In this document: piece by piece, positions 3,014 through 54,945 of the stretch
Numbering within the stretch: position 1 is the first letter of the stretch
How the letters are laid out: every line of letters starts with the position of its first letter
Origin: Gemmatimonadota bacterium
Lineage (GTDB): Bacteria; Gemmatimonadota; Gemmatimonadetes; JACCXV01; JAHWKZ01
DNA length: 64,000 bases
Direction: 5' to 3'
NCBI GenBank assembly: GCA_050732935.1
Contig: JBOHRW010000217.1
Span: 398-64,397, forward strand
Made by a program: the position numbers and the translations under genes
Notes under the pieces: model-generated
Told to the model about the DNA's origin: nothing
Seen by the model: only the letters and a program-made list of their open reading frames with translations
Database searches by the model: none

Positions 3014-3577
3014 TCAGAAGATGAAGGAGATCCCGCCCGAGAACTCCAGGTTGTTCGTGGCCTCGCTGTCGTCCTCTCCGCTCTCCACGAAAATGATGTT
3101 GTCGCGGACCTCGCCGCGCAGCGCCCAGGTGGCCGTGCTCGGCGCGCCGTTGTACCACTTCACGCCGCCGCCCACCGGAATGAGGAGGTTCGTCTCGCTG
3201 TCCTCGATAGGCTCGGGCACGTCTGACACCTTGATCGTTGCCGCTCCCACTCCCGTGCCAACAAAGAATCGGGCCGGACCCGACGCAGGGAACATGTACT
3301 CGAGACCTATGCTGTAGAGATACATGTTCACGTCGAAGTCATCGCCCTCGAAGTCGGCGTTGGAAGGGATCCAGTCGAAGTTGCCGCCCCACGCTACGCC
3401 GTTGGCGTACTGGAGCATCATCCGGGCGCCGAGGATACCGTCCGTGTCATCCACGTTGTCAGCGCTGAAGGCACCGCCGTGGAGGTTCAGCTCGTACCAG
3501 TTCTGAGCCCGTGCAGGTTCCGCCGTGAGCAGAGCGACCAGCAGCCCCAGGGCCGCGACCAACGATAGCCGGTACAT
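3014..3577 (-). CDS. outer-membrane beta-barrel protein (paralog family 1 of 4)
   Basis: Signal peptide MYRLSLVAALGLLVALLTAEPARAQ. Alternating amphipathic strands. C-terminal ...NLEFSGGISFIF with a terminal Phe typical of OMP barrels. Homologous to the 3750, 5463 and 16710 genes (NLHGGA..., WA.R.D.RDNII...). Confidence 0.7.
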   Translation of the reverse strand: MYRLSLVAALGLLVALLTAEPARAQNWYELNLHGGAFSADNVDDTDGILGARMMLQYANGVAWGGNFDWIPSNADFEGDDFDVNMYLYSIGLEYMFPASGPARFFVGTGVGAATIKVSDVPEPIEDSETNLLIPVGGGVKWYNGAPSTATWALRGEVRDNIIFVESGEDDSEATNNLEFSGGISFIF

Positions 3578-3749: not shown

Positions 3750-4391
3750 CTAGCTACCGAAGAAGAAGGATATCCCACCCGAGAGCTCGAGGTTGTGGGT
3801 AGCCTCCGGATCGACGTCGCCCTCGTCCACATCGAAGCGGTCGCGCCAGATGATGTTGTCGCGAAAATCGGCGCGGAACGCCCAGCTCTGGCGGGTCGTC
3901 CGGCTGAACCACTTGAGGCCGACGACGAGCGGCACGAGGAAGTCCGTCTCGCTGTCGTCGATACCCGGCGGCGCGTCCTCGAGGCTGATCGTCGCGGCTC
4001 CGACGCCGCCCCCCACGAAGAGGTGGAGGCGGTTCGGCGACGGAAACGTGTAATCCACCTCGGCGCTATACAGGAACACGTTGATGTCGAGATCCTCGTC
4101 CTCCGCCGAAGAGCCCAGGTCGATCTGCGCGGCGGGGATCCAGTCCAGGTTCGCACCGAACCCCCATCCTGGAGCCGTGTTGTAGAGGAAGCGCAGGCCG
4201 ACCATCCCGTCGGTGTCGTCGGTCTCCCCGAGTGAGCTCGCGAACTCGTCGTCGAGAAATAGCGCTCCGCCATGGAGGTTGAACTCGTAGTTGTTGTCGT
4301 GGTAGTGGGAAGCCGGGGACTGGGCCTGGATGGTGGGTGCCGTGAGCCCGAGCGCGAGCAGCGCTCCGAGCACGAAGCCGGCGGTCTTCAT
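3750..4391 (-). CDS. outer-membrane beta-barrel protein (paralog 2)
   Basis: Starts at MKTAGFVLGALLALGLTAPTIQAQ (ATG at 4391). Ends ...NLELSGGISFFFGS. Clear paralog of 3014..3577. Confidence 0.7.
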   Translation of the reverse strand: MKTAGFVLGALLALGLTAPTIQAQSPASHYHDNNYEFNLHGGALFLDDEFASSLGETDDTDGMVGLRFLYNTAPGWGFGANLDWIPAAQIDLGSSAEDEDLDINVFLYSAEVDYTFPSPNRLHLFVGGGVGAATISLEDAPPGIDDSETDFLVPLVVGLKWFSRTTRQSWAFRADFRDNIIWRDRFDVDEGDVDPEATHNLELSGGISFFFGS

Positions 4392-4618
4392 CGATCGCTC
4401 CCTTCGCCTTGGTTTGCGGGATGGAGCCATGTCAGGATTCGAATGCGAACGGTGGGGTGATCGAAAAGATAGGCGCGGCGTTTCCAGGCCGGCAACGCGG
4501 CCCTACCATGCACGGTGTCGCCTCGGGGGTTTCTGACGCCCGGGAACACCCCCAGGCTCTCTGGCGTGTATAATGAATAAGGATGTTCCGGAATTCCCGA
4601 GCGAGGAGGTCGATCTCG

Positions 4619-5338
4619 ATGTTTTCCACAGCTATCTGGTCGCCGGTCCGCGTGTTGGCCCTCGCAGCCGGCCTGCTGCTGGTCGCCGGCCCGGTCCGGG
4701 CACAGGACCGGATCGGACCGGCGTCGTCCCTTCGCGTGGTCGAGCTCGTCGACACGTCGGGCGCGCGTCTCGAACGGACGATCCTCGAACCCATGCTCCC
4801 CGCTGAGGTCCTGCGACTCCAGATCGCGCTCACGCGGGCCGGGTTCGATCCCGGTGTCCGCTCGGGCGTCGTGGATATTGAGACGGAGACCGCCCTCCGG
4901 CAGTTCCAGCTCGCCCGTGGTCTCGAAGCGTGCGGCTGCCCCTCCTACGAGACCGTGCTCGCTCTCGGCGTACCGGTGCAGGTCGTGGGACGGGCCGAGA
5001 TACGCCGGGCATCCGGGGTCCGTGCCGCGGATGGCAGCCCGGTCTACGTCCTGGAAGGCGACGGCTTCGTATCCGGTATCCTGCTCCATGACGGCTTCTT
5101 CTTTCACAGTCACAAGGATCGCTTCCACCGGCCGTTCTTCGGGAGCGGCGTGGTGGTGGGAGGCGAGCCGGCGCTGGGAGCCGGACAGGTGGGGCGGATG
5201 ATTCCGCGCTCGTCGGTCGGTGTCCGGGAGATCGTGCGCCCTGCGCCGTCCGGTCGCGGCGGCACCATTCAGCCGGCGGTTCCCGATGCGGGCGGCGACG
5301 GGGGCTCCCGGCCGCCGAGGCCACAGCCGAATCAATAG
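4619..5338 (+). CDS. secreted protein with peptidoglycan-binding (PG_binding_1-like) domain
   Basis: GGAGG lies 10 nt upstream of ATG 4619. Signal peptide MFSTAIWSPVRVLALAAGLLLVAGPVRAQ. LRLQIALTRAGFDPGVRSGVVDIETETALRQFQLARGLEACG resembles the PGRP/PG_binding_1 helical repeat. An overlapping minus ORF 4388..5335 exists but has no recognisable features. Confidence 0.5.
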   Translation: MFSTAIWSPVRVLALAAGLLLVAGPVRAQDRIGPASSLRVVELVDTSGARLERTILEPMLPAEVLRLQIALTRAGFDPGVRSGVVDIETETALRQFQLARGLEACGCPSYETVLALGVPVQVVGRAEIRRASGVRAADGSPVYVLEGDGFVSGILLHDGFFFHSHKDRFHRPFFGSGVVVGGEPALGAGQVGRMIPRSSVGVREIVRPAPSGRGGTIQPAVPDAGGDGGSRPPRPQPNQ

Positions 5339-5462: not shown

Positions 5463-6599
5463 CTATCCGGTCGTGCCGCGCACGCCCTGCTCGACCTGAT
5501 AGGGCTGATACGTATCGGCCGGCGCGCACAGCGGCAGGTAAGCCTCAGTATAGGGCTGACGCGCTTCGACTCGCACGTAGACCGGAACGCCGTCGTACTC
5601 GCCGATCTGGACGAGCTGATCCATCCCGATCGTGGTCGAGGACCCGAACTTCACCCAGTTCCGTCCGTCGACCGAGATCGTCTCGTTGAAGCGGTACCAG
5701 TCGCGCCCGTCCGCGCAGGCCGCCGCCGGCTCCGGCTCCACGACGATCGGGCAGCCTTCGCTGTCGACCTCCTCGCCGAACGGCGTCTCGGGGCACTGGT
5801 CGCGGTCATCGGGAACGCCGTCCCCGTCCGAGTCCACCGGGACCGGGCAGCCGAAGCTGTCGACGGGCGTGCCGAGCGGCGTATTGGGGCATTGGTCGCG
5901 GTCGTCGTAGACACCGTCGCCGTCAGCGTCGGTCGGGGGCGGTGGCGCCGCCGGCCCGCCACCGAAGAAGAAGGAGATCCCGCCCGAGAGCTCCCAGTTG
6001 TTCTTCCACTCTGTATCGTCCTCGAGCGGTGTGGGGTCCACAGCGTCGATGTCGTCGCGCCAGATCAGGTTGTCGCGCGCGTCGATCCGCAGGGCCCAGG
6101 TGGGATCCTCGGCGTCGTTGTGGACCTTGAGCCCGATGCCGACCGGGATGAGGAGATCGGTCTGGCTTTCATCCTCGTCGTTCACACCTACATCCCCGAG
6201 ACGGGTCGTCGCTCCACCCACACCGCCGGAGAGGAAGAAGTTGGTAATTCCCGCAGAAGGGAAGGTGTAGTCAATCGTTCCACTCCACAGGAAAAGACCG
6301 ATATCGATGTCGTCTGGCTCGGGGTTTGTATCTGTCGGTGGCCTCTCGATCTGATCGGCGAAGACCCAATCGCCGTTGACGCCGATCCCCAAGCCGTTCT
6401 CCCAGTGGCGGGCCAGGCGTAGGCCGGCGAGCACGTCGGTGTCCGTGTTGTCCTCGTCATCATCATCGTCGATGCCGAGGTCGTAGGCGAACGCGCCGCC
6501 GTGAACGTTGAATTCCCAATAGTTGTGCTGGGCCTGCGCCGCGTGTGGCGTGAGAAGCGCGACCAGGGCCCCCAACATGAGTGCCCAAGCGTGTCGCAT
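5463..6599 (-). CDS. outer-membrane beta-barrel protein with TSP type-3 (OmpA-like) Ca-binding repeats and an uncharacterised Cys-containing C-terminal domain (paralog 3)
   Basis: Starts at MRHAWALMLGALVALLTPHAAQA. Barrel ends GGISFFFGGG. It is followed by repeats DADGDGVYDDRDQCPNTPLGTPVDSFGCP and DSDGDGVPDDRDQCPETPFGEEVDSEGCP, then CADGRDWYRFNETISVDGRNWVKFG...GEYDGVPVYVRVEARQPYTEAYLPLC. No OmpA_C domain is present. Confidence 0.75.
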   Translation of the reverse strand: MRHAWALMLGALVALLTPHAAQAQHNYWEFNVHGGAFAYDLGIDDDDDEDNTDTDVLAGLRLARHWENGLGIGVNGDWVFADQIERPPTDTNPEPDDIDIGLFLWSGTIDYTFPSAGITNFFLSGGVGGATTRLGDVGVNDEDESQTDLLIPVGIGLKVHNDAEDPTWALRIDARDNLIWRDDIDAVDPTPLEDDTEWKNNWELSGGISFFFGGGPAAPPPPTDADGDGVYDDRDQCPNTPLGTPVDSFGCPVPVDSDGDGVPDDRDQCPETPFGEEVDSEGCPIVVEPEPAAACADGRDWYRFNETISVDGRNWVKFGSSTTIGMDQLVQIGEYDGVPVYVRVEARQPYTEAYLPLCAPADTYQPYQVEQGVRGTTG

Positions 6600-12003: not shown

Positions 12004-12462
12004 CTACCGTGCCTGGATCGTGATCGTGCTCACGACCTGGTTGTCCGACGGGTCCGGGTCGTTCTGATCGAGCGCGGTGACCTGGATCGTCATCTGGAGG
12101 GTCGCCGTCACCGTCACCGTGGCCGCGGCGGTCATCGCTTCCATTTCGGCGGTGATGGTGGCGGTTCCGTCACCGATCGCCGTCACCGTGCCGTCGCCAT
12201 CGACCGTGGCCACATCGGGATCGCTCGATCGCCAGGAGAGACCGTTTCCGGGCGCCAGAGGCGCGCCATCGCCATCGGTGACGGCGAGCTGCCGCTGACC
12301 GCCGATCGCCCCGAGGACGAAATCGGCCGGTGACAGGGAGATGGCGTCCGGGAGCTCTCCCCCTCGAGTCGCGTCGAAGGGTCCGACGCCGGAGCATGAT
12401 CCCAACAACACGCAGGCCGCGGTCGCCACGATCCCCCAGGCAGCCATTCCTCGATCGGACAT
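12004..12462 (-). CDS. Big_2 (bacterial Ig-like group 2) domain lipoprotein, cassette B
   Basis: MSDRGMAAWGIVATAACVLLGSCSG lipobox. LSWRSSDPDVATVDGDGTVTAIGDGTATITAE matches the Big_2 core. Sits 29 nt downstream of adhesin-like gene B on the same strand. Confidence 0.65.
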   Translation of the reverse strand: MSDRGMAAWGIVATAACVLLGSCSGVGPFDATRGGELPDAISLSPADFVLGAIGGQRQLAVTDGDGAPLAPGNGLSWRSSDPDVATVDGDGTVTAIGDGTATITAEMEAMTAAATVTVTATLQMTIQVTALDQNDPDPSDNQVVSTITIQAR

Positions 12463-12490
12463 CGCTATCTCTCCTCTCCGCCTGCGGCCC

Positions 12491-13849
12491 TCAATTCGAT
12501 TCCTCGTCCATGACCGTCAGGATCAGCGTGAGCGTCTCCCGCTCATCCGGGGCCAGGCTGCCCACGGACCACACACCGGTCGCCTGGTCGTAGGCCCCCT
12601 TGCTGGCGGTCGCCGAAGTCAACGCGAGCCGGGGCGGGATCCCCTGAACGAGCTGGACGCCGGTGGCGGTCACCGGTCCACCGTTCCGCACCGTCACGAC
12701 ATAGGCGACGTCGTCCCCGACGGTCGGGGAGTCGTCGCTCACCGAGACCTCGACCCCGAGGTCTGCGCTTTCGGCGGCGAAGGTGACGGTCGCCGTGTCG
12801 TCGATCGTCGCGCCGTTGACGGTCCCGGTGACCGTCGCCGTTCCGGGAGTCGTGATGGAAGTCAGGGTGGCCGTGTAGATGCCATTTCCACGGTCGCTGA
12901 CAGGACCGAGCGTCCCCAAGGTCGTCGACAGGGTGACCGCGTCGCCGCCCGATGCGAGCGGCTCCCCGTTAGGGTCGATCAGCAGGACCGTGATCGTCGA
13001 CGTGCTGGAGCCATTGGCGGGGATCGATGCCGGGTCGGCGGTGATCATGCTGTTCGCTGGCGAAGGGGCGCCCGCGGTGAACTCGACCGTCGCGGTATCG
13101 TCGATGCTCTCTCCATCGACCGTGCCGGTGACGGTGGCTGTGCCGCCCCTAGTCGGCGAGGTGAGGGTGGCGAGGTACGTGCCATCGCCTGCGTCCGAGA
13201 CGGAACCCAGGGTCCCTGAGTCGGTGGACAGGGTGACTGCATTCCCACCCGACGGGAGCGGGTTTCCGGATTCGTCGCGAAGCCGGACGGTGATCGTCGA
13301 CGTGCTCGATCCATCGGCCGGGATCGAGGTGGGGTCGGCGGTGATCTCAGAGGTCGCGCCCGAAGGCGGCCCCGGCTCGTCATCCTCATCGTCATCGTCG
13401 TCATCCTCATCGTCGTCATCCTCATCATCCTCATCGTCGTCATCCACGACGTCGAATGGGGCGCTGGTCGTGCTCGTGAGCCCGTCCGCCGTCGCCTCCA
13501 GAGTGTATCCCGCTCCAGGCTTGCTGACCGAGAGGTTGTCGAACGTGGCCAGGCCGCTCTCGGCGTCGTCATGCTTCCGTCCACCCAGCGTGGCTCCGCC
13601 GGGGTTGGAATGGAGCCCCACATCGATGCGTGCCGTGAATGATGCCACGCGGTTTCCGGATGCATCCACGGCTTCGACCGTGACCGCAGGATCGATGTGC
13701 TCGCCCGCGTCCACATCGGTGGGCTCCTCCACGAAGCGCAGGGCGGTCGCAGTCTGAGCGCGCAGGCCGGAAGCCGGAAGGAGCGCGGCGACGAGGCACC
13801 CGAGGACGAGCGCCGATCGCCCCGGGGGATGGGTCGCCGGGGAAATCAT
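12491..13849 (-). CDS. secreted adhesin-like protein: invasin/Big_1-like Ig repeats, poly-Asp/Glu linker, C-terminal DUF11 domain (cassette B)
   Basis: Signal MISPATHPPGRSALVLGCLVAALLPASGLRA. Two repeats of the form ITADP.SIPA(D/N)GSSTSTITV.L.D..GNPL..GG.AVTLST..GTLG.VSD.G.G.Y.ATLTS. Then DDDDEDDEDDDDEDDDDDDEDDE. C-terminal ...VTVRNGGPVTATGVQLVQGIPPRL...TGVWSVGSLAPDERETLTL (DUF11-like). Confidence 0.7.
   Translation of the reverse strand: MISPATHPPGRSALVLGCLVAALLPASGLRAQTATALRFVEEPTDVDAGEHIDPAVTVEAVDASGNRVASFTARIDVGLHSNPGGATLGGRKHDDAESGLATFDNLSVSKPGAGYTLEATADGLTSTTSAPFDVVDDDDEDDEDDDDEDDDDDDEDDEPGPPSGATSEITADPTSIPADGSSTSTITVRLRDESGNPLPSGGNAVTLSTDSGTLGSVSDAGDGTYLATLTSPTRGGTATVTGTVDGESIDDTATVEFTAGAPSPANSMITADPASIPANGSSTSTITVLLIDPNGEPLASGGDAVTLSTTLGTLGPVSDRGNGIYTATLTSITTPGTATVTGTVNGATIDDTATVTFAAESADLGVEVSVSDDSPTVGDDVAYVVTVRNGGPVTATGVQLVQGIPPRLALTSATASKGAYDQATGVWSVGSLAPDERETLTLILTVMDEESN
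13378..13447 (-). repeat. GAY/GAR trinucleotide simple-sequence tract encoding a 23-residue poly-acidic linker
   Basis: Plus strand reads tcatcctcatcgtcatcgtcgtcatcctcatcgtcgtcatcctcatcatcctcatcgtcgtcatc. It encodes DDDDEDDEDDDDEDDDDDDEDDE within the 12491..13849 gene. Confidence 0.7.
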
Positions 13850-13931
13850 GAGCCTGCGAAATATGGGACATCGCCCGGGACACGACACCCCCCGACTACT
13901 TCGTACGGGGTAGGCTCCGGTCGGGTGCCGT

Positions 13932-14420
13932 CTACGGAGCCACGACGGTGATCGTCGTCACGACTTGGTTGTCGGAGTCATCCGAGTCGGATTGATCCGT
14001 GGCCGTCACCTCGACCGTGGTCTCGATTGTCGCAGCGACGGTGACGAGGGCGGCGGCCTCCTGTCCAGCAAGGGTGGCGGTGATGGTGGCCTGCCCGTCG
14101 CCGGACGCGCTGACGATCCCCGATCCGTCCACGGATGCCACTGCCTGGTCGCTGCTGGCCCACGACACCCCGTTCCCCGGAGGAATGGGGATCCCCTCCC
14201 CATCGACGACGCCGAGCTGACGCCGCGCGCCGATGGCGCCGAGGGTGACCTGGTCGGGGTCGATGGAGATCTCTCCTGGCGAGATCCCTCCGTACGGGCC
14301 AACGCCCGAGCACGTGGCCCCGGTCAGCAAGACCGCCAGAACGACGAATCCCCTGCGCAATGTCGATCCCTCCTTCGGGACCGGCGCTCGCCGATCGAGC
14401 CGGGGGTCGGCCACTTCCAT
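13932..14420 (-). CDS. Big_2 domain lipoprotein, cassette A (paralog of 12004..12462)
   Basis: ...GFVVLAVLLTGATCSG lipobox. VSWASSDQAVASVDGSGIVSASGDGQATITAT is a Big_2 core. Alternative TTG start at 14360. Begins 4 nt after the stop of adhesin-like gene A. Confidence 0.6.
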   Translation of the reverse strand: MEVADPRLDRRAPVPKEGSTLRRGFVVLAVLLTGATCSGVGPYGGISPGEISIDPDQVTLGAIGARRQLGVVDGEGIPIPPGNGVSWASSDQAVASVDGSGIVSASGDGQATITATLAGQEAAALVTVAATIETTVEVTATDQSDSDDSDNQVVTTITVVAP

Positions 14421-14423
14421 CCG

Positions 14424-16619
14424 CTAATCCGAATCCGGGCCCAGGACGCGGGTCACGATGGTGAGCGTGGCCCGCTCGCCTTCGGCCAGCGCCCCCACGC
14501 TCCAGATCCCCGTTGTCGACACGTATTCTCCCTGACTGGTCGTGGCGGATACGAACTCCAGCCGCGCGGGCAAGGTCTGGGTGATTTCGACCCCCGTGGC
14601 ATGGTCGGGACCCTGGTTGCCGGCCGTCACGACGTAGACCACCTGGTCCCCGATCCCCGGCGTCTCGTCGCTCACCTCGACCACGACCTCCAGGTCCGCG
14701 CTCCCGGCCGCGAACGTCACGGTGGCGGTGTCGGAGATCGAGGCTCCATTGACGGTGCCGCTGATGGTGGCGGTTCCCGGCGCGATGGTGGAAAGAAGGG
14801 TCGCCGTGTACGTCCCGTCCCCGTTGTCCCGCACGGCACCCAGGGACCCGAGCGTGGTCGAGAGGTTCACGTTGTCGCCGCCTGTCGAGAGGAGCACTCC
14901 TTCCGCGTCGCGGAGCTGGACGACGATGCTGGACGTGCTGGCTCCATCCGCGAGGATCGAGACGGGATTGGCGCTGATCGTGCTCGTGGCCGGCGAGGCC
15001 GCGCCGGCGGTGACGGCGAACGTCGCGCTGGTCGCACCCGCCGCCCCCGAGACCGAGAACCCGAGCCGGTAGCCGCCCGCCGATCGGTCGATCCGCAGGT
15101 CGTCGAAAGTCGCGACACCGTTCAGGAGCGGCTCGTTGACATCTCCCTGGAGGTCGGCGCCGGCGGGATTGACCGCCAGTGTGGCCGCCACGTTGCCGGT
15201 GAAGCCGGTCAGGGTGTTGCCGAGGCCGTCCACGACGCGCACGACGACCGGAGGCGTGATGGGCTCGTCGACGGGCGTGTCGGTCGGCTGCTCGTCGACG
15301 ACCAGCGTGGGCTGGCCGACCAGCGCGAACGTGACGGACGCGGTATCCGTGATGTCCGCCCCGTTCACCGTGCCCGAGATGGTCGCCGTGCCGGCCGTGG
15401 TGGCGGAGGTCAGCGTGGCCGTGTACGTGCCGTCCCCGTTGTCGATGTCGGGGCCAAGGGTCCCCGACGTGGTAGAGAGCGAGACGTCGGCTCCGCCACC
15501 GGTCAGGGGGTTCCCGAACGCGTCCCGGAGCTGGACGGTGATCGTCGACGTGCTGCTCCCGTCGGCCGGGATCGTGGTCGGGTCGGCCGTGATCTCCGAC
15601 GTCGCTCCGGAGGGTGCGGCCGGGGTGATCTGGAAAGAGCTGCTCGTCGCTTCCGTGAGCGGCGCCGAAGCGGCCTGGAGCGTGTAGGTCCCAGCCTGCT
15701 GTATCGAGAGGTCGCCGAAGGTCGCCACGCCATCCACTGCGGCCTTGCTGGTCGTGCCCATGAGCGCTCCCCCGGCCGGGCCCGTGGCGATCGACAGCGT
15801 CACCAGGCCGGTGAAGTCCGGGTCCACGTTCCCACCGGCGTTCCTGGCCTCCACGGTCACCGCGGGGGTGATGGTCTGGCCGGCCGCCCTGCTGGTCGGT
15901 TGCTGAGCGAAAGCGAGCTGAGTGGCCGGGGCGACGGTGAACGTGACCGTGGCGTCGTCGTCGAGGACCAGGTTGTCGACCGCGGCGGTCACCGTCGCCG
16001 TCCCGGTAGCCGTCGAGGTGAGGGTGGCGGTGTACGTGCCGTCGCCCCCATCGTCCACCGTGCCCAGCGAGCCGAACGTGGTGGAAAGCACGACGTCGGC
16101 CCCGCCGGTCGTCAGGGGGTTTCCGAACTCATCCCGGAGGAGGACGGTAATCAGGGCGCTGCTCACCCCGTCGGCCGGGATCGAAGTCGGGTCGACCGTG
16201 ATCTCCGACTCCTCGGGGTCCGGGGGGCCGGGAGTGATCTGGAAGGAGGCGCTGGTAGCAGCCGTGAAGTTGTCAGCCGTAGCCAGGAGGGTGTAGGTGC
16301 CGGCCTCGTCGATGTTCAGGTCGCTGAAGGTGGCCGTCTCCAGGACTGTCTGTTGGGCCACGGTTCCGTCGAGCCCCCCGGGGCCCGAGGCGATGCTGAG
16401 CGTTACGGTCACGGGGAGAATGGCGCCCGGTGCGTGGACCACGACGTCCGGCATGATCTGCCCGGCTTCCGTATCGGTCGGCTGTTCATCGAATTCGAGC
16501 GCGATCTGCGCCCTCAGGTCCTTGACGAGCGGGGAGGCGAGCGACGTGATCAGGCAGGCCAGAAGGCCGATCGCGGCGAGGGTCCCCCGCCCCGGGGGTT
16601 GGGTCACCGGGGGAAACAT
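14424..16619 (-). CDS. secreted adhesin-like protein: six alternating Ig-like modules (invasin-like + Big_1-like) and C-terminal DUF11 domain (cassette A)
   Basis: Real start MFPPVTQPPGRGTLAAIGLLACLITSLASP at 16619; the listed 1360-aa ORF continues upstream only as antisense of the OMP gene. Modules of the type QPT...AG..I.P.V.V.A.D..GN...F.G.V.L...GP.G..L.G......GVATF.DL.I..AG.Y.L alternate with ITADP.SIPADGSSTS.ITV.LRD..GNPL.GGG..V.LSTT.G.LG. Ends ...VVYVVTAGNQGPDHATGVEITQTLPARLEF...TGIWSVGALAEGERATLTI. Confidence 0.7.
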   Translation of the reverse strand: MFPPVTQPPGRGTLAAIGLLACLITSLASPLVKDLRAQIALEFDEQPTDTEAGQIMPDVVVHAPGAILPVTVTLSIASGPGGLDGTVAQQTVLETATFSDLNIDEAGTYTLLATADNFTAATSASFQITPGPPDPEESEITVDPTSIPADGVSSALITVLLRDEFGNPLTTGGADVVLSTTFGSLGTVDDGGDGTYTATLTSTATGTATVTAAVDNLVLDDDATVTFTVAPATQLAFAQQPTSRAAGQTITPAVTVEARNAGGNVDPDFTGLVTLSIATGPAGGALMGTTSKAAVDGVATFGDLSIQQAGTYTLQAASAPLTEATSSSFQITPAAPSGATSEITADPTTIPADGSSTSTITVQLRDAFGNPLTGGGADVSLSTTSGTLGPDIDNGDGTYTATLTSATTAGTATISGTVNGADITDTASVTFALVGQPTLVVDEQPTDTPVDEPITPPVVVRVVDGLGNTLTGFTGNVAATLAVNPAGADLQGDVNEPLLNGVATFDDLRIDRSAGGYRLGFSVSGAAGATSATFAVTAGAASPATSTISANPVSILADGASTSSIVVQLRDAEGVLLSTGGDNVNLSTTLGSLGAVRDNGDGTYTATLLSTIAPGTATISGTVNGASISDTATVTFAAGSADLEVVVEVSDETPGIGDQVVYVVTAGNQGPDHATGVEITQTLPARLEFVSATTSQGEYVSTTGIWSVGALAEGERATLTIVTRVLGPDSD

Positions 16620-16709
16620 GACACAGGGAATATCGCGAGCCCGGGCCTCCCGCGCACGGGCCGCTGATTGACCGGCCTCGCCCGCGGGCGTACACTGCGG
16701 AACAGCCCC

Positions 16710-18128
16710 ATGACCCCTCGCACGGCCCTCGCTCTGGTGGCGCTCCTTTGCGTCCTGTCGGCGGCTCCGGACCAGGCGGTCGCCCAGACCGGCTGGGAGG
16801 CCAACGTCCACGCAGCGACCCTCGTCAACGATCTCTTCGAAGAGAGCGGGGACGGCGTCCAGGTGGGCGGCCGACTGGTCTACACGACCCCGTGGCGGGT
16901 CACGGTGGGCGGCAACTTCGATTGGGCACGGCTGACCGATGTCGGACTGGGTCTGGTGGACGGCGCGACGGCCGACCTCCTTCTCTACAGCGGCCAAGTC
17001 GGATACGCGGTGCCCGTCGCCTCGCGGGCGGATCTCATGCTGGCGGCGGGGATCGGCGGGGTCACCATCCGTCTGCGGGATGTGCCCTCCTCGACCGGGG
17101 TGCTGACCAGCAGTTCGGGCCAGCTCGTCCCGGTAGGGGTCGGGATCAGGCTCCGGAACCGGGCCGTCGACGCCTCGTGGGCGTTCCGCGCCGACGTTCG
17201 CGACGACATCATCTTCCTGGACGTCCAGGACCCGGCGAGCGGCGATGTCGACCAGGAGCCGCGGCACAACTGGGAGATCTCGGCGGGCGTCTCGTTCCTG
17301 TTCGGCGGCGGGGAGCCGACGCCGACCCCGACCGACACTCGACCCGTGGAGCGACGGCCCGTCGAGCCGCGCCCGGAGCCCGAGGCCGACCGTCCGGCCC
17401 AGCCGAGGCCGGTCGTCCAGGGCGACGCCGACCGAGACGGGGTCCCTGACCGCCTCGACCGCTGCGTCAGAACGCCGTCGGATCTGGCCGTCGGAGCGAC
17501 CGGATGCCCGATCGACATGGATCGTGACGGCGCGCCGGACCGCCGCGTGGCGCAGGTGCCGCCCGATCGGCCTCCCGCCGACGAAGGGCCCGAGCCCCCG
17601 GAGCCTTCGGACGAGGTCGAGCCGCCCCGGGTGGGTCCGGGCGACACCGATCGGGATGGCGTCGCGGACGCCGCCGACAGGTGCGTGAACACACCGATCG
17701 GCTCCGCCGTCGACGAGCGGGGCTGCCCGCCTCCTCCACCGGCGGCGGAGCCCGGCCCGGAGGTCGAGGCGCCTGCGGTGGAAGATGAGGCGAGACCCGC
17801 CGACGAGCCGCCCGTCGATGAACGGCCCCTGGACGAGGCGCCCCCAGACGAGGCGCCGGATGAAGGCGTGGAGGCCGCTCCGCCAACCGCGTGCCTGGAT
17901 GGACGGCCGTGGGATCGCCCAGGGGTCACGATCGCATTCGATGGTCGCCTTTGGGAGCAGCTGGGTCCACCCGAGCCGATCACGCTGAGCAACCTGAACC
18001 GGGTCGGCGAGTTCGACGGGGTCCCGATCTACGTGGGGTCGGTTGCCGAGGAGCCGTACACGGACCTGTGGGTGCCGCGCTGCAGCGGGGCCTATCAGCT
18101 CTACGTGGAGGAGGGGAGCGCGGAGTGA
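16710..18128 (+). CDS. outer-membrane beta-barrel protein with TSP3-like repeats and the same uncharacterised C-terminal Cys domain (paralog 4)
   Basis: Start MTPRTALALVALLCVLSAAPDQAVAQ. Barrel ends AGVSFLFGGG. Pro-rich linker. DADRDGVPDRLDRCVRTP...GCP and DTDRDGVADAADRCVNTPIGSAVDERGCP. C-terminus ACLDGRPWDRPGVTIAFDGRLWEQLG...GEFDGVPIYVGSVAEEPYTDLWVPRCSGAYQLYVEEG aligns with the C-terminus of 5463..6599. Confidence 0.75.
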   Translation: MTPRTALALVALLCVLSAAPDQAVAQTGWEANVHAATLVNDLFEESGDGVQVGGRLVYTTPWRVTVGGNFDWARLTDVGLGLVDGATADLLLYSGQVGYAVPVASRADLMLAAGIGGVTIRLRDVPSSTGVLTSSSGQLVPVGVGIRLRNRAVDASWAFRADVRDDIIFLDVQDPASGDVDQEPRHNWEISAGVSFLFGGGEPTPTPTDTRPVERRPVEPRPEPEADRPAQPRPVVQGDADRDGVPDRLDRCVRTPSDLAVGATGCPIDMDRDGAPDRRVAQVPPDRPPADEGPEPPEPSDEVEPPRVGPGDTDRDGVADAADRCVNTPIGSAVDERGCPPPPPAAEPGPEVEAPAVEDEARPADEPPVDERPLDEAPPDEAPDEGVEAAPPTACLDGRPWDRPGVTIAFDGRLWEQLGPPEPITLSNLNRVGEFDGVPIYVGSVAEEPYTDLWVPRCSGAYQLYVEEGSAE

Positions 18129-18570
18129 GGCGGATCGGGGCCGGGGTGGCGTCCAGGATCGCGGTCGCGGTGGTTCTCGGATGCGGAAGCGGGACGGTGG
18201 CGCCTGACGACATCCCCGTTTCCGAGAGGGATCTACGGATCGCGGTCGCGAGCGGGGACCATCAACTGGGAGAGGTCGGAACAACGCTGCCCGCCTTCCT
18301 GGTCGCGCGGGTGACCGACGGGGCACTCTTCCCGTAGAGGACGTCCGGGTGCGGTGGGAGGCCGTCGAAGGAGATGGGGAGCTCAGCCTGAAGGGGAGCC
18401 TCACGGACCGCACGGGCCTGGCCGCCGCGGTCCTCTTCCTGGGGGACGAGCCCGGCGAGCTCGTCGTCCGCGTGTTCCTCGAGAACAAAGAGGAGGCGCG
18501 GTTCACGGCCCGAGCCGTCGAGGTCGGCGCGCCAAGGCCTTCGGTTTCTCCTGCCTCCCGGGGACGTTAA
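18125..18570 (+). pseudogene. small lipoprotein gene split by a frameshift at about 18335 (pseudogene or assembly indel)
   Basis: GTG 18125 (GTGA overlap with the OMP stop) gives VRRIGAGVASRIAVAVVLGCGSG...LPAFLVARVTDGALFP, then stop. The +2 frame continues as ...RWEAVEGDGELSLKGSLTDRTGLAAAVLFLGDEPGELVVRVFLENKEEARFTARAVEV, which looks Ig-like and protein-like. Confidence 0.3.
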
Positions 18571-29824: not shown

Positions 29825-30667
29825 CTACTGCACCGTCACGCTGGTCGTGTCAGCCAATCCGCCGGACTCGGCCACGACCCCGGTCGAACCCGCCGCCACA
29901 CCGGTGACCAGGCCGGTCCCGTCCACCGTGGCCACCAGCGAATCCTGCGACGAGAAGGTCACCGACGGATCGGTGATCGCCGCCCCGGTCGTGTCCTGGA
30001 CCGTGACGGTCAGCCGCGAGGTGTCGGCCACCGCGAGGGTGAGGGAATCCGGAGCCAGCGTGACCAAGCCGACCGCCGCGCCCGCCTGCACCGTGACGCC
30101 GACCTGCGCGGTCAGCCCCTCCGTCTCGACGGTGATCACGGCGTCTCCTTCGGCCATGCCCGTGATCACGCCGCTCTCGTCCACGGTCGCGACCGTCTCG
30201 TCCGAGCTGGTGAAGGTGATCACGGGATTCACGACGGGAACATCGTCGCTATCAAGCACCGTAACGGTCACGTCCTGGGTCTCGTCGATCGCCAGCGTCA
30301 CGTCGCTCGGCTCGACGGAGAGAGCGGCCGCTTCGCGCACGAAGATCGTGGCCGTCGCGGTCTGAGGGCCCGCTTCGGCCGTGATGGTGGCCGTGCCCGG
30401 CCCCTGGGCGGTGACCAGACCGGTGCTGGATACCGTGACCACGCTCTCGGCGCTGCTCGTGAACGTCACGTCCGCGTCGAGCGTATCGCCGCCCGAGCCC
30501 ACGACGATCGCCTGCAGCTGGACGGTCTCGGACACCGACAGGCTGTCGGCGCTGGGCTCGAGGACGATCGAGCCAACGGGAGGACTCACGGGATCGTCCT
30601 CGCAGGCCACGGCGAGCATGGAGACGAGCGCGAGCGCCGCGGCTCCGATGGCGGTTCGGGATCGCAT
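29825..30667 (-). CDS. lipoprotein with three tandem Big_2 domains
   Basis: MRSRTAIGAAALALVSMLAVACEDD lipobox. Three repeats of the type TFTSS.E.VATVD..G.VT....G.A.ITVE. Confidence 0.65.
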   Translation of the reverse strand: MRSRTAIGAAALALVSMLAVACEDDPVSPPVGSIVLEPSADSLSVSETVQLQAIVVGSGGDTLDADVTFTSSAESVVTVSSTGLVTAQGPGTATITAEAGPQTATATIFVREAAALSVEPSDVTLAIDETQDVTVTVLDSDDVPVVNPVITFTSSDETVATVDESGVITGMAEGDAVITVETEGLTAQVGVTVQAGAAVGLVTLAPDSLTLAVADTSRLTVTVQDTTGAAITDPSVTFSSQDSLVATVDGTGLVTGVAAGSTGVVAESGGLADTTSVTVQ

Positions 30668-30884
30668 AGGGGCTTCCTTTCGAATGAGTGACTCGAAAAA
30701 TCGAAGATCGAAGGAGTCAGTATCCCTCCGTGACCGGCGTTCGTCTGTCATTCAGGCGACGACCCGACCCCTAGCGCGGTGACAACGGATGTGGAGATTG
30801 GGCAGTGGGTCAGCTAAACCGACCCACCAAGCGGAGACGGTCTCCCGTTGCTGCACCTCCGGCACGCCGATAGCTTGCCCTTCG

Positions 30885-40151: not shown

Positions 40152-40850
40152 ATGGGAGAAGAGATGGCTCGTAGGAAGGTGACCGTCATTCCGAATCAGG
40201 TTTTTGTGGGCCTGCCCTGGCGAAACGTGCGCCCTCGGTACGAGAAGTGCATCGACAAGCTCGAGCAAAGGTACCCTCTGCATTTCACCATCGTGGGTCG
40301 AAAGGACGCACAGGACGCCGAGGACCTGCTCCAGGTCATCACCGCTCGTATCGACGCGTCGAGCTATGCTATCTTTGATGCCACTGGCGGGAATGCTAAC
40401 GTGTCGCTTGAGTACGGATACGCCGAAGCTGTAAACCTTCCGCGTGCCCTGTACCTCAGCACCCACAAGGCCGCCGGGGGAGGCAGCAGAGGTACGATCA
40501 TCTCTGATCTTGGCGGTAAGCGACGTGTGGAGTATAAGAATGAGCAGAGTCTTCGGACCCGCCTCGACACCTTCTGCAAGGATCACGATTACACGAAGCG
40601 CTTCGAATCCTTCTTGCAGAAGCGCGTCCGTCCGACGAAGCCCGGAGAGAAGAAGAGACAGCGGACGCTCGCACTGAAGTTGATACACCACCTGGACGAC
40701 AAAGCAAAATTACGACGAGCCGATATAGCGCAATCACTCCAAGCAAGTGGCTACTCCGAGAAGGAGATCTCCGATATGCTGACCAAATTGCACAAAGAAG
40801 GACTACTGAACGTAAGTCGCGGGCGGTTCTCGGACGTGCGGGTCGCGTAA
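40152..40850 (+). CDS. hypothetical protein: N-terminal nucleoside-2-deoxyribosyltransferase/SLOG(TIR-like) Rossmannoid domain + C-terminal winged-HTH
   Basis: KVTVIPNQVFVGLPWRN...SSYAIFDATGGNANVSLEYGYAEAVNLP resembles the D.T..N.NV..E.GyA motif of NDT/SLOG-like domains. C-terminus ...EKEISDMLTKLHKEGLLNVSRGRFSDVRV is wHTH-like. Confidence 0.5.
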   Translation: MGEEMARRKVTVIPNQVFVGLPWRNVRPRYEKCIDKLEQRYPLHFTIVGRKDAQDAEDLLQVITARIDASSYAIFDATGGNANVSLEYGYAEAVNLPRALYLSTHKAAGGGSRGTIISDLGGKRRVEYKNEQSLRTRLDTFCKDHDYTKRFESFLQKRVRPTKPGEKKRQRTLALKLIHHLDDKAKLRRADIAQSLQASGYSEKEISDMLTKLHKEGLLNVSRGRFSDVRVA

Positions 40851-40944
40851 CACGACCTACAGCGGATCGGCTACATTGGCCGTTAATCGCCGAACTGTTG
40901 GACACTACGCCAAATCCGAAATCCCCGCCGGGGACCAGGACCTC

Positions 40945-43050
40945 ATGAACCACAGCCAGATAGTCAGCTTCATCTGGGGTGTCGCGGATCTCATCCGCGA
41001 CACCTTCAAACGCGGCAAGTACCAGGACGTGATCCTCCCGCTCACCGTGCTGCGGCGGCTCGACTGCGTGCTGGCTCCCAACAAGTCGAAGGTCCTAGAG
41101 GTCCAGGCTAAGTACAAGGGCAAGATCGAGAACCTCGACCAGCTGCTCCGGCGCGCCTCGGGCTTCGCCTTCTACAACACCTCCCGCTACGACTTCGAGA
41201 AGCTCCTGGGCGACGCGCCGCACATCGCGCAGAACCTCCGCAACTACATCGCCAGCTTCAGCCCCAACATGCGGGAAGTACTTGAGAAATTCGACTTCAA
41301 CAACACCATCAGCAAGCTCGACGAGGCGGGACTGCTCTTCCTTGTCGTGCAGAAATTCGGCGAGGTGAATCTCCACCCGGACGTCATCGACAACCCGACG
41401 ATGGGCACCATCTTCGAGGAGCTGATCCGCAAGTTCAACGAGGCCTTGAACGAGAACCCGGGCGAGCACTTCACTCCTCGCGACGTGGTCCACCTGATGG
41501 TGGATCTTCTGATCGCAGGAGACGAGCAACGGCTACGCAAAAAGGGCGTGATCCTAACGGTATACGATCCGTGCTGCGGCTCGGGAGGGATGCTGACGAT
41601 CACGAAGGAGCACATCAAGGCAGGCGAGTGGTGCGGGCGAGACCTCCGGAAGCCGCCCGTAAACCCGGGGGCTGACGTCCATCTCTTCGGGCAGGAAGTG
41701 AACCCAGAGACCTGGGCGGTCAGCAAGTCCGATCTCTACATGAAATCGGTCGACGGCCGCGACGCGGAGAATATCGCGTACGGGAGCACCCTCTCGAACG
41801 ATCGTCATGCGGGCACGGCCTTCGACTACCTGATCGCCAACCCGCCCTACGGCAAGGACTGGAAACGCGACGAGGTCGCCGTACGGGCCGAGCATGAGCG
41901 GGGCGCCGCGGGACGCTTTGCCCCAGGGCTCCCACGGATCAGCGACGGCCAGCTCCTGTTCCTCCTGCACATGCTGGCGCACATGAAGGAGCCCAAGCAG
42001 GGCGGTTCGCGCGTCGCCATCATCATGAACGGCTCTCCGCTCTTCACCGGAGACGCCGGGAGCGGCGAGAGCGAGATCCGCCGCTGGATCCTCGAGAACG
42101 ACCGCCTCGAGGCGCTGATCGCGCTTCCCGAGCAGCTCTTCTACAACACGGGGATCGCCACGTATGTCTGGGTGCTCACCAACCGGAAGCCTCCCGAGCG
42201 GCGCGGCAAGGTCCAACTCATCGACGCCACCCGCTTCTGGACTTTGCTCCGAAAGAGCCTAGGGGCCAAACGGAGGGAGATCCCATTTGAGAAGAAGGAG
42301 GACATCCTCGCGCTGCTCCAGAACTTCGCGGACGGCGAGACCCGCAAGATCGCGGAGGACGGCGAGGAGCGCGAGCTCGTGGTGAGCCGGATCTATCGCA
42401 CGACCCACTTCGGCTTCCGCAAGATCACGGTCGAGCGACCGCTCAAGCTGGACTTCCAGGCGACGCCCGAACGGATCGCGCGACTCGATGAGGAACGCCC
42501 CTTCAAGAATCTCGCCGTCTCGCGCAAGAAAGGGGCGGCCAAGGCCAAGGAGGAGGAGGAAGGGCGCGCCCAGCAAGCCGCCATTCGCGAGCTCCTGGCG
42601 AACCTTCCGGGCGAACTCTACCTGGATCGAACCGAGTTCGAGGCGGTCCTCGGGAAGGCGGCCCGGAAGGCCAACCTGAAGCTCGCCGCTCCGATCAAGA
42701 GGACCATTCTCTCGGCACTCTCCGAGCGCAACGAGAGCGCCGAGATCTGCCGCGACAAGGACGGAAATCCGGAGTCCGACACTGAGCTTCGGGACACCGA
42801 GAGCGTTCCCCTCTCCGAGAGCGTTGAGGCCTTTTTCGAGCGCGAGGTAAGGCCCCACGTCCAGGACGCGTGGATCGACATCAGCCGGCGCGACCCGCAG
42901 GACGGAGAAGTCGGCATCGTGGGTTACGAGATCAACTTTAACCGCTACTTCTACGAGTACCGCCCACCGCGGTCGCTGGAGGAGATCGAGGCCGACATCC
43001 AGCACGTGGAGAGAGAGATCGTCTCGATGCTGCGGGAGGTCGCGGGGTAG
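40945..43050 (+). CDS. hsdM: type I restriction-modification system, DNA methyltransferase subunit M (long form)
   Basis: HsdM N-terminal domain, FTPRDVVHLMVDLL, VYDPCCGSGGML, LIANPPYGKDW (NPPY). Confidence 0.9.
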   Translation: MNHSQIVSFIWGVADLIRDTFKRGKYQDVILPLTVLRRLDCVLAPNKSKVLEVQAKYKGKIENLDQLLRRASGFAFYNTSRYDFEKLLGDAPHIAQNLRNYIASFSPNMREVLEKFDFNNTISKLDEAGLLFLVVQKFGEVNLHPDVIDNPTMGTIFEELIRKFNEALNENPGEHFTPRDVVHLMVDLLIAGDEQRLRKKGVILTVYDPCCGSGGMLTITKEHIKAGEWCGRDLRKPPVNPGADVHLFGQEVNPETWAVSKSDLYMKSVDGRDAENIAYGSTLSNDRHAGTAFDYLIANPPYGKDWKRDEVAVRAEHERGAAGRFAPGLPRISDGQLLFLLHMLAHMKEPKQGGSRVAIIMNGSPLFTGDAGSGESEIRRWILENDRLEALIALPEQLFYNTGIATYVWVLTNRKPPERRGKVQLIDATRFWTLLRKSLGAKRREIPFEKKEDILALLQNFADGETRKIAEDGEERELVVSRIYRTTHFGFRKITVERPLKLDFQATPERIARLDEERPFKNLAVSRKKGAAKAKEEEEGRAQQAAIRELLANLPGELYLDRTEFEAVLGKAARKANLKLAAPIKRTILSALSERNESAEICRDKDGNPESDTELRDTESVPLSESVEAFFEREVRPHVQDAWIDISRRDPQDGEVGIVGYEINFNRYFYEYRPPRSLEEIEADIQHVEREIVSMLREVAG

Positions 43051-44724: not shown

Positions 44725-46054
44725 GGCGCTCGCGCAGATCAGGGGGGCGCGACCCCGGCGCTACCGTCCGTACACGAGGTGCAAAGATTCCGGCGTCGAT
44801 TGGCTTGGGCAGATCCCGGTGCATTGGGAAGTGAAGCGGCTCAAGTTTATTGCGCCAGCAACCATGGGTAAGGTAGACGTCAAGCCGGATGACGCGGTCT
44901 ATATCGGCCTCGAGCATGTCGAGTCATGGACGGGTCGCCTGCTACTCGATAACCAACCCGATGTCGTAGACAGCGTCGTGACATCGTTCAAGGCAGGCGA
45001 CGTGCTCTTCGGTAAACTTCGTCCCTATCTGGCTAAGGCGGCTCGACCAGACTTTGACGGAGTCTGTACAAGCGAGATTCTACCGCTTCGGCCGGCAGCC
45101 CGGTGCTCTCAAAGCTACTTGATGTACTGCCTTCTGAGTGCACCGCACATTCGGTTCCTCGACTCCCTTACCTATGGCACCAAGATGCCGCGACTCAGCC
45201 CCGCGCAGATCGGAAACAGCTTCGTGCCAGTTCCCCCCCTTGAGGAGCAGCACGCTGTTGCCGGTATCCTCGACCGCGAAACATCTAGGATCGACGGGCT
45301 CGTGGCGAGGAAGGAGCGGCTGATCGAGCTGCTCCAGGAGAAGCGGACTGCCCTCATCACCCACGCCGTCACCCGCGGCCTCGACCCGAGCGTCCAGCTT
45401 ATGGACTCCGGCATTGAGTGGGTGGGGGAGATTCCGGAGCATTGGGAGGTAAGCCGCATCAAATGGGTTGCTCGGATGGAAAGCGGGCATACACCGGACA
45501 AGAAGATCGAAGCTTACTGGCGTGATGGAGATGTGCCGTGGCTCTCACTCAATGACACTGGATTCCTGAAGGATCACGACTACATATCTGAGACGGCTCA
45601 CTATACGAATGAGCTGGGGCTGAGGAATTCCTCCGCGCGCCTCCTTCCTGCGGGAGCCGTAGTCTTCTCGCGCGACGCAACGATCGGACTGTGCGCGATT
45701 ACTGAACGGCCAATCGCGGTATCGCAGCACTTTATTGCCTGGCTATGCGGGGGGAGGCTTCTGCCGGAGTACCTGCTGCGAGTCTTTGATGCAATGCAGG
45801 GTGAGCTTGAGAGGCTAACGATGGGCGCGACTCTACGAACGATTGGAATGCCTCATGTAAAGGAGCTAGCAACTCCAATCCCGCCCGTGTCAGAGCAAGA
45901 GCAGATCGTCGCTGTCATCCGCACCGAAACCGCCAAGATCGATGCCCTCATCGTCAAGGTCCGCAAAGCCATCGACCTTCTCAAGGAGTTCCGCACCGCC
46001 CTGATTTCCGCAGCCGTCACAGGCAAGATCGACGTCCGCGATGGGGTACCGTGA
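44693..46054 (+). CDS. hsdS: type I restriction-modification system specificity subunit S (two target-recognition domains)
   Basis: Two TRD halves, each followed by a conserved coiled-coil region ([39 protein letters not shown]...; [38 protein letters not shown]). Confidence 0.85.
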
Positions 46055-47097: not shown

Positions 47098-47155
47098 ACT
47101 TGCGACAAACTTGCGGCAGAACTTGCGACAGACTCGCGACGGGACTTGCGACATG
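47098..47155 (+). repeat. tandem direct repeat array, five copies of ACTTGCGACA with 11-12 bp period, filling the fic-hsdR intergenic space and ending on the hsdR ATG
   Basis: acttgcgacaa / acttgcggcaga / acttgcgacag / actcgcgacggg / acttgcgacATG. Confidence 0.7.
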
Positions 47156-54763: not shown

Positions 54764-54945
54764 GGCGTTTACCTCCGTCCGGGTGAAGGCCGTGCGTCCG
54801 TGGGGGAGCGTCTCGACTCGAGCGGAGTCATTCTAACACGCGGGCCATAAACCGTGCCGGCGGGAACCGTGTTTTTCTCGGACGGGACGTTAGAATCGAT
54901 GCATAGCTTCCCGCTCACCTGGATGTGTCTCGTCGGGGAGGTATC

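Follow-up and report, generated by a model that had tools for sequence, protein, structure and literature searches.

In chaperone-usher pili, a genetically incomplete immunoglobulin (Ig)-like domain is completed by one or more strands from another polypeptide, and in the engineered split of SpyTag and SpyCatcher a strand-bearing peptide rebuilds an Ig-like domain of the isopeptide family in trans. In the type V pili of Porphyromonas gingivalis, the C-terminal donor strands of a lipidated outer-membrane anchor (Mfa2/FimB) fill the groove at the fibre base (PMC13655056). InvL of Acinetobacter baumannii is a barrel-less, lipid-anchored invasin-like adhesin and a substrate of the type II secretion system (PMC9245377), and the chlamydial DUF11-type protein OmcB, which has no anchor of its own, is co-transcribed with and attached to the small, proven lipoprotein OmcA (PMC1403754). 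DUF11 (PF01345) was renamed CLIPPER in 2025 and is a CnaA-like, nine-strand Ig-like domain (PDB 9IFR); CLIPPER domains form a Lys-Asn isopeptide and are typical of fibrillar adhesin stalks (bioRxiv 10.1101/2025.04.25.650565). How Ig-repeat adhesins are attached without a barrel, a sortase signal or a type IX secretion system (T9SS) tag is an open question in many environmental phyla. In this study, we analysed a stretch of 64,000 nucleotides (nt), here called the window, from a Gemmatimonadota bacterium (assembly GCA_050732935.1, contig JBOHRW010000217.1, positions 398 to 64,397, forward strand). It carries two tandem cassettes, each with an invasin-like adhesin gene (adhA, adhB) followed by a small lipoprotein gene (lipA, lipB). 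Both adhesins end inside a CLIPPER/DUF11 domain, and the strands that are missing there appear to have counterparts in the C-terminal tails of the lipoproteins. We propose, with a probability of about 0.6 and from sequence comparison, that a barrel-less invasin-like fibre is tethered by the lipoprotein, whose tail supplies in trans the two strands that the adhesin lacks. The cassettes contain the following features.

14424..16619, minus strand: adhA, a predicted Sec-exported invasin-like fibre of 731 amino acids (aa) with modules X1-I1-X2-I2-X3-I3 and then a truncated CLIPPER/DUF11 domain.
14427..14696, minus strand: CLIPPER/DUF11 core of adhA, strands 1-7 only according to profile coverage; the chain ends in the loop after strand 7.
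13932..14360, minus strand: lipA, a predicted lipoprotein of 142 aa with signal peptide, invariant Cys-Ser-Gly-Val-Gly-Pro, Big_2 domain and C-terminal tail.
13935..14030, minus strand: tail of lipA, TIETTVEVTATDQSDSDDSDNQVVTTITVVAP, two strands homologous to CLIPPER/DUF11 strands 8-9; proposed donor hairpin.
12491..13849, minus strand: adhB, a paralog of 452 aa with X1, acidic linker, I1, I2 and a truncated CLIPPER/DUF11 domain.
13370..13444, minus strand: linker of adhB, DDDDEDDEDDDDEDDDDDDEDDE, 23 residues in translation, Asp and Glu only.
12494..12763, minus strand: CLIPPER/DUF11 core of adhB, strands 1-7 according to the Pfam profile and AlphaFold2 (AF2).
12004..12462, minus strand: lipB, a predicted lipoprotein paralog of 152 aa with lipobox LLGSC, Big_2 domain and tail.
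12007..12102, minus strand: tail of lipB, TLQMTIQVTALDQNDPDPSDNQVVSTITIQAR, proposed donor hairpin; profile gain with the adhB core.

All four open reading frames (ORFs) of the two cassettes are present on the minus strand, and only the start of lipA was revised. The initial annotation had described a tandem two-gene duplication in which a Big_1-type adhesin is followed by a Big_2 lipoprotein, and this description holds. In BLASTP the adhesins are paralogous (59% identity, 4e-63, over the C-terminal 201 aa) and so are the lipoproteins (56% identity, 4e-40), in both cases far beyond chance. Its six Ig-like modules in the A adhesin and three in the B adhesin, with an acidic linker in the latter, were borne out by module-by-module BLAST, which gave the orders X1-I1-X2-I2-X3-I3-DUF11 for adhA and X1-acidic linker-I1-I2-DUF11 for adhB. 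The intergenic gaps of 4 and 29 nt require adjustment to 63 nt in cassette A and 28 nt in cassette B. The former value depends on the start of lipA, which is most likely TTG 14360 rather than ATG 14420, because AAGGAGG lies 7 nt upstream of this codon and homologs begin with MRK.. there. No terminator-like site was found between the four cassette genes, and adhA-lipA-adhB-lipB may form one operon.

Both adhesins had also been said to end in DUF11. The domain is indeed located there, but it is incomplete, since the match covers the 114-position profile only as far as position 85-87. The Pfam gathering cut-off for DUF11 is 24.6 bits at a profile length of 114, and the adhesin cores alone reach 78.9-105.8 bits, well above this cut-off. 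Residues 642-726 of adhA correspond to profile positions 1-85 of 114, and adhB alone covers positions 1-87. In all six adhesin-lipoprotein pairs tested the match stops at position 84-87 and the adhesin ends a few residues later; orthologous adhesins all end at the same point of the domain. When the core was joined to the tail of its cognate lipoprotein, the match extended over positions 1-113 in each of these pairs (from the window and from homologous loci, numbered with the prefix L), with a gain of 9.6-15.3 bits.

Pair A of the window: core 97.4 bits, core and tail 107.2 bits.
Pair B of the window: core 84.3 bits, core and tail 96.6 bits.
Pair L003: core 91.1 bits, core and tail 100.7 bits.
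Pair L004: core 105.8 bits, core and tail 121.1 bits.
Pair L007: core 96.2 bits, core and tail 109.5 bits.
Pair L001A: core 96.2 bits, core and tail 107.2 bits.

A full-length DUF11 match within one polypeptide was not seen; it was reached solely with adhesin and lipoprotein tail joined. As controls, 72 other tails (39 shuffled and one reversed sequence, and 32 natural 37-mers rich in beta structure taken from the same proteins) were used, and none of them reached the 107.2 bits of the real lipA tail (best control about 102.5 bits). The most divergent pair, L004, whose lipoprotein is 36% identical to lipA, was aligned by tblastn, when joined, in one piece from residue 8 to residue 127 of 129 (about 41% identity, E 3e-13 to 4e-12). 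The targets were contiguous Streptomyces plasmid genes for an "isopeptide-forming domain-containing fimbrial protein" or a "DUF11 domain-containing protein". In a multiple alignment with the contiguous proteins, the break coincides with the loop that joins their strands 7 (..ATLTLRAK) and 8 (VTNTATTHA). AF2 modelled the C-terminal 201 residues of adhB with a predicted local distance difference test (pLDDT) score of 95.3 and the DUF11 part as seven strands. The seven strands of the core and the two of the tail add up to nine, the strand number of 9IFR.

The tail, 32 residues at the C-terminus after Big_2, is present in every partner lipoprotein (consensus TIExTIEVTAxDQxDxDxSDNRVVTTITVxAP). In the AF2 model of the lipoprotein, calculated from a 22-sequence alignment, the Big_2 domain has a pLDDT of 93-98 and the tail forms strands 131-137 and 152-158 at a pLDDT of 78-88. 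Foldseek matched this model to Big_2 domains with a root-mean-square deviation of 2.0-2.5 A over 84-87 columns, and because these close matches span just the Big_2 columns the tail lies outside the Big_2 fold. Mean pairwise identity is 0.66 in the tail, 0.64 in the Big_2 core and 0.37 in the signal peptide. A tail that is as conserved as the Big_2 core is, judged by this comparison, under selection. By the profile and alignment results, the tail corresponds in descent to CLIPPER strands 8-9, which the adhesin core lacks. Other searches were less productive. The 95-aa DUF11 core alone gave no matches in a homolog search, and neither did the joined pair A in a PDB sequence search. A profile of the joined pairs reached 9IFR weakly, over the first half, and a hidden Markov model from the joined pairs found no contiguous DUF11 among 200 proteins. 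Generic Big_2 matches in other phyla (L010-L021) were set aside, as the tail is missing there, and an exhaustive search of representatives by means of the lipoprotein profile brought up mostly giant multi-Big_2 proteins and was uninformative.

The lipoprotein family is small, with 25 clusters at 90% identity and members in four GTDB species representatives, and all clusters that carry an organism label are metagenome-assembled genomes (MAGs) of Gemmatimonadota. At every locus where upstream DNA was examined, the adhesin gene is located directly 5' of the lipoprotein gene. The adhesin stop and the lipoprotein Cys codon are 111, 94, 91, 94, 62, 62 and 62 nt apart, and the reading frame of one gene relative to the other differs between loci. 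Stop-codon read-through or frameshifting to a fusion protein was rejected on the basis of these differing frames. Between the two halves lie a conserved signal peptide and the invariant Cys-[Ser/Asn/Thr]-Gly-Val-Gly-Pro. The same data bear on the explanation that the split is an artefact, caused by faulty assembly, by gene decay or by a frameshift or stop that sequencing introduced into a single gene. An apparent frameshift is present nearby, in a small lipoprotein gene at about 18330, and ATG 14420 of cassette A is in frame with adhA after its stop. However, the split recurs in at least eight independent loci with different assemblies, junction sequences and relative frames, the signal peptide and the Cys between the halves are conserved, and a Shine-Dalgarno sequence precedes each lipoprotein start. 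An artefact is effectively refuted by this conservation. Both cassettes, with A and B orthologs, occur in L001, L002 and L022, and one cassette each was found in L003, L007 and L008; from the presence of both in the former three, the tandem duplication is deduced to be older than the split of the sampled species.

Several observations weigh against strand donation by the lipoprotein. The profile gain is moderate (10-15 bits), and the reversed tail already adds 4 bits. Pairwise BLASTP of the window cassettes against the same Streptomyces DUF11 protein ends at the core, and the window tails are tied to DUF11 via the Pfam profile and via family homology to the L004 tail only. All known family members come from MAGs of uncultured Gemmatimonadota or from metagenome contigs, and no secretion system was found among the window ORFs scanned. 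In addition, AF2 is confident in the seven-strand domain by itself, and published AF2 models of DUF11 have seven to nine strands (bioRxiv 10.1101/2025.04.25.650565); because of this, the adhesin domain might be stable without the tail. The seven-strand domain would then be a degenerate, self-sufficient variant, the tail a remnant of gene fission or a hairpin with another use, for instance in self-association or in binding a different envelope component, and the lipoprotein an accessory or export factor. This reading draws on the truncated adhB domain, modelled without the tail at a pLDDT of about 95, on the tail, which forms a fairly confident hairpin by itself in the lipoprotein model, on the strand numbers of the published models and on window tails that are too diverged for a pairwise BLAST link to DUF11. 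A remnant, however, would not match the folded core in conservation across sequences that are 34-73% identical. Moreover, truncation point and tail are kept jointly in every pair and in both ancient paralogs, and core and tail rebuild the full profile in the correct order. We therefore consider a self-sufficient domain unlikely, though it is the alternative that deserves the most attention.

The Lys-Asp-Asn triad of the isopeptide chemistry, which many but not all DUF11 members have, is largely replaced. The position of the isopeptide Lys is occupied by Val, Val or Ala, and no member has Lys there; the catalytic Asp is replaced by Gln, Gln or His and the isopeptide Asn by Thr, Met or Leu, and Asp and Asn are kept only in the L004 pair. 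Because Lys is replaced by Val or Ala, the domain is, as read from the alignment, a non-isopeptide variant, and any joint with the tail is predicted to be non-covalent. An intermolecular isopeptide bond, which would have made the tail a natural SpyTag, was rejected, since no member has a Lys at the strand-1 position. Whether the two genes form a natural "tag and catcher", in which the strand 7-8 loop is the site of a permanent split in a CnaA-type CLIPPER domain and the lipoprotein docks to this domain and anchors the fibre, is in our opinion an evenly balanced question. Limited literature searches returned no description of a split CLIPPER domain, and when full texts were searched for strand complementation together with lipoprotein adhesins, only pilus systems came up. 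The words split, truncated, complementation and lipoprotein are absent from the CLIPPER paper (bioRxiv 10.1101/2025.04.25.650565).

The adhesins themselves are of the invasin type. In Pfam, adhA matches Invasin_D3 at 4e-80 and contains three Invasin_D3/Big_1 domains and DUF11, and adhB matches it at 3.5e-62 and contains two such domains and DUF11. The X modules, which have no annotation, are distant relatives of the Big_1 modules in BLAST. The best structural matches of the Ig modules in Foldseek were InvE, InvD, FdeC, invasin and intimin, and the adhesin core gave a weak Pfam match to Chlam_OMP6. A-copy adhesins keep a near-constant length of about 731-746 aa. B-copy adhesins of the window and of its orthologs in L001, L002 and L022 have 452, 542, 559 and 746 aa, a variable length that implies a varying module number, and by this measure Ig modules are both gained and lost in the B copy. 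The signal peptide is of the Sec type with a conserved Ala|Gln cleavage context, and the mature N-terminus leads directly into module X1. Predicted signal-peptidase sites are followed by Gln in adhA, adhB, the divergent outer-membrane protein (OMP) encoded at 16710 and the OMP paralogs (..RA|Q, ..VA|Q, ..RA|Q, ..QA|Q). An N-terminal Gln/pyroglutamate rule has been described for Bacteroidota, and the Gln after the signal-peptidase sites here recalls that rule.

Searches for an anchor within the adhesins were negative. Neither a barrel nor a sorting tag, of the T9SS or another type, was detected by Pfam and NCBIfam in adhA and adhB, with no Por_Secre_tail/TIGR04183-type match for the T9SS C-terminal sorting domain, and a lipobox conserved among orthologs was not found. 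adhA was rejected as a lipoprotein, as the Cys in its signal peptide is not conserved in orthologs; for adhB this is unlikely, as the Cys lies in the middle of the h-region. A lectin-like C-terminal tip domain was not detected by Pfam, and the C-terminus is the truncated DUF11. Because the adhesins have neither a barrel nor an anchor of their own, a separately encoded partner is needed. The initial annotation had likewise been reminded of a split intimin/invasin-type system, with barrel and passenger as separate polypeptides and the protein encoded divergently from adhA as the barrel. The need for a partner stands, but the choice of the OMP is not supported. The features at this end of the locus are given below.

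16620..16709, no strand: divergent intergenic region of 90 bp with back-to-back promoter-like elements.
16710..18128, plus strand: OmpA-like OMP with a small N-terminal barrel, a Pro-rich/TSP3 region and a conserved Cys-containing C-terminal domain.
18125..18570, plus strand: small Ig-like lipoprotein gene 3' of the OMP gene, frameshifted near 18328-18337.

The divergent gene product has OMP_b-brl and TSP_3 in Pfam: OMP_b-brl (PF13505) matches residues 8-196 with 35.9 bits (cut-off 28.7), and the myxobacterial-type OMP domain OMP_myx_plus matches as well. Its label as an OMP-TSP3 paralog is right, as three further family members are encoded within 14 kb. The protein at 5463-6599 (minus strand) has the same TSP3 and Cys-containing C-terminal domain, and those at 3750-4430 and 3014-3577 (both minus strand) consist of the barrel only; a PG_binding_1 protein is encoded between the paralogs at 4583-5338 (plus strand). 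If the OMP were the exporting and anchoring barrel of a split intimin/invasin, co-regulated with the adhesin from the 90-bp region, one could point to the invasin/intimin-type Ig modules (Invasin_D3 at 4e-80 and the Foldseek matches), to the conserved intergenic region and to the OMP gene being the divergent neighbour of the adhesin gene in all four long contigs (L001, L002, L003, L022). Against this, Pfam and NCBIfam gave no match to an inverse-autotransporter barrel (IAT_beta) or LysM in the OMP, adhA or adhB. The barrel is a small OMP_b-brl with a region of about 170 mature residues, which we take to fit the 8-stranded OmpA/OmpX class and not a 12-stranded translocator. None of the three OMP paralogs in the window adjoins an adhesin, and the free end of the fibre would be N-terminal, opposite to the polarity of intimin. 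The predicted linkage of OMP and adhesin is kept in the long contigs, but genes for aconitase, a TPR protein, acyl-CoA dehydrogenase, a Suc_Fer-like protein and EamA in the flanks, unrelated housekeeping genes, are equally conserved. The linkage can therefore not be separated from plain synteny, and it shows no functional tie. In our view it is very improbable that the OMP is the separated barrel; the better-supported partner of the adhesin is the lipoprotein, which had been listed but not interpreted.

The element TTGACC-17-TACACT is located 13 nt before the ATG of the OMP gene. A CGATATTCC motif precedes the adhesin ATG by about 10 nt, and both sequences are conserved in L001, L002 and L022. 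Judged from these motifs, the 90-bp region is compatible with two back-to-back promoters. Elements resembling a -10 box lie about 10-14 nt from both divergent start codons (16668-16709 and 16620-16640), and this spacing suggests very short or leaderless 5' ends for both genes. Downstream of the OMP gene, the lipoprotein encoded at 18125-18570 has the lipobox VVLGC, and its intact orthologs of 140-148 aa in L001 and L022 align to two frames. The break in this gene reflects either a real frameshift or pseudogene or else a sequencing error.

Regarding the cassette lipoproteins, the two small proteins score 31.9 and 32.0 bits for Big_2 (Pfam cut-off 22.8), with E 1.3e-7 for lipA. The Cys of the predicted lipobox is invariant in 22 of 22 family members and is usually preceded by Ala, Gly or Ser; the lipobox reads LLGSC in lipB, ATAC or VTGC elsewhere in the family and an atypical GATC in lipA. 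In the family alignment C37 and G39-P42 are invariant. The motif Cys-[Ser/Asn/Thr]-Gly-Val-Gly-Pro-[Phe/Tyr/Leu] (lipA residues 37-43, about 14292-14312) is near-invariant family-wide at the putatively lipidated Cys. Such conservation after the Cys exceeds what is expected for a flexible tether, and the Cys-[Ser/Asn/Thr]-Gly-Val-Gly-Pro motif may be a sorting or surface-export signal. Another lipoprotein of the window, encoded at 29825-30751 (minus strand), has the lipobox LAVAC, three Big_2 domains and no DUF11-like tail, and is weakly similar to lipA and lipB.

In the mechanism that we propose, Sec would export the adhesin with an open C-terminal CLIPPER domain consisting of the first seven strands. 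The lipoprotein would be lipidated and sorted to the outer membrane, where it would consist of the lipidated Cys, a short linker and one Big_2 domain ahead of the tail. Its C-terminal hairpin would supply strands 8 and 9 to the incomplete domain, a fold complementation in trans, and the joint would be non-covalent. In this way a lipid anchor in the outer membrane would hold the fibre at its C-terminus, and module X1 at the N-terminus would form the distal tip; surface exposure, an adhesive role and a route across the outer membrane are presumed here. The sequence data speak well for the homology and indirectly for the interaction. The cassette would have been duplicated before the sampled species diverged, after which the module number of the B copy would have drifted. 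Potentially, the tail might act only transiently, as a chaperone strand that caps the domain and is later exchanged, so that a polymeric, pilus-like fibre results. Chaperone-usher and type V pili as a rule assemble by donor-strand exchange (PMC13655056), and each locus can hold two cassettes. However, the adhesins have no free terminal extension like the tail, and genes for an usher, a chaperone or a processing protease are absent from the neighbourhood, so that transient capping appears hardly credible compared with a permanent anchor.

Further observations concern the annotation of the cassettes and the wider window. Antisense to lipA and adhA runs a stop-free ORF of 900 aa (13965-16667, plus strand) with a very high third-position G+C content, and a simple gene caller based on this content called pieces of the antisense strand in preference to the true adhesin gene. 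In high-GC genomes, repeat genes rich in Thr, Ala and Gly are an annotation trap of this kind. Between about 36000 and 51500, G+C content falls to 0.575-0.62 at its lowest, compared with 0.67-0.71 in most of the window. This stretch encodes a type I restriction-modification system, made up of HsdM (40816-43050) and an HsdR-like helicase that ends in a Schlafen/AlbA_2 domain (47042-50719), as well as a Fic protein (45811-47097), and is probably an acquired defence island. A full-length bacterial serpin is encoded at 54907-56157 (plus strand; Pfam Serpin, E 1e-105).

If strand donation is correct, a lipoprotein that donates strands to a CLIPPER domain would be a new attachment principle. It would be an undescribed way of attaching surface fibres in diderms without a type V barrel, a pilus usher, a sortase or a T9SS tag, and the equivalent in nature, without a covalent bond, of engineered split isopeptide domains. 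It would also assign a definite role to the CLIPPER family, whose structural characterisation dates only from 2025, and it would provide a searchable signature, namely a protein that ends at about DUF11 position 85 next to a neighbour with the tail. Orthogonal natural split-Ig pairs of A-type and B-type are of possible interest to protein engineers. If it is not correct, the locus is an ordinary duplicated adhesin operon of an uncultured Gemmatimonadota lineage.

Compared with the described systems, the window locus resembles each in part. As in the type V pilus anchor, a lipoprotein with C-terminal strands is proposed, here from sequence architecture, to anchor the base of a fibre. However, the folds are unrelated, a transthyretin-like double sandwich in type V pili versus CLIPPER and Big_2 here, and Pfam and NCBIfam gave no FimA/Mfa match in the window adhesins and lipoproteins. 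Furthermore, all type V subunits are lipoprotein precursors, whereas the fibre here is a plain Sec protein; their groove is opened by gingipain cleavage, whereas here it is genetically open; and they form a polymer, whereas a 1:1 pair is expected here. With chaperone-usher pili the locus shares the proposed completion of an incomplete Ig-like domain by another polypeptide. Here two C-terminal strands rather than one are missing, and the strands would come from the tail of a lipoprotein instead of from a periplasmic chaperone or the following subunit; usher and chaperone genes are absent among the annotated neighbours in L001-L003 and L022 and among the window ORFs scanned. With these folds and accessory genes absent, the system belongs to neither the type V nor the chaperone-usher family.

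Among the adhesins, the intimin/invasin inverse autotransporters (type Ve secretion) share the arrays of Big_1/Invasin_D3 modules, but the window adhesins lack barrel, LysM and lectin tip, and their C-terminus would be proximal, which reverses the polarity. InvL is likewise an invasin/intimin-type Ig adhesin without a type V secretion barrel and is held by lipid, as proposed here. InvL is itself a lipoprotein, with an N-terminal anchor in cis and a C-terminal lectin-like tip, whereas the anchor here would act in trans at the C-terminus. OmcB and OmcA also pair an anchorless DUF11-type envelope protein with a small lipoprotein, but these Cys-rich proteins are joined by disulfide cross-links with no split domain, and OmcA has neither a Big_2 domain nor a DUF11-like tail. 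SpyTag/SpyCatcher is engineered, derived from a CnaB domain and covalent, whereas the pair described here is natural, CnaA-like, divided by two strands and without a reactive Lys. As to CLIPPER/DUF11 itself (9IFR), core and tail together match the whole profile and align with contiguous members, and the domain is again part of a fibrillar-adhesin stalk; here it is divided over two polypeptides at the strand 7-8 loop and has lost the isopeptide Lys.

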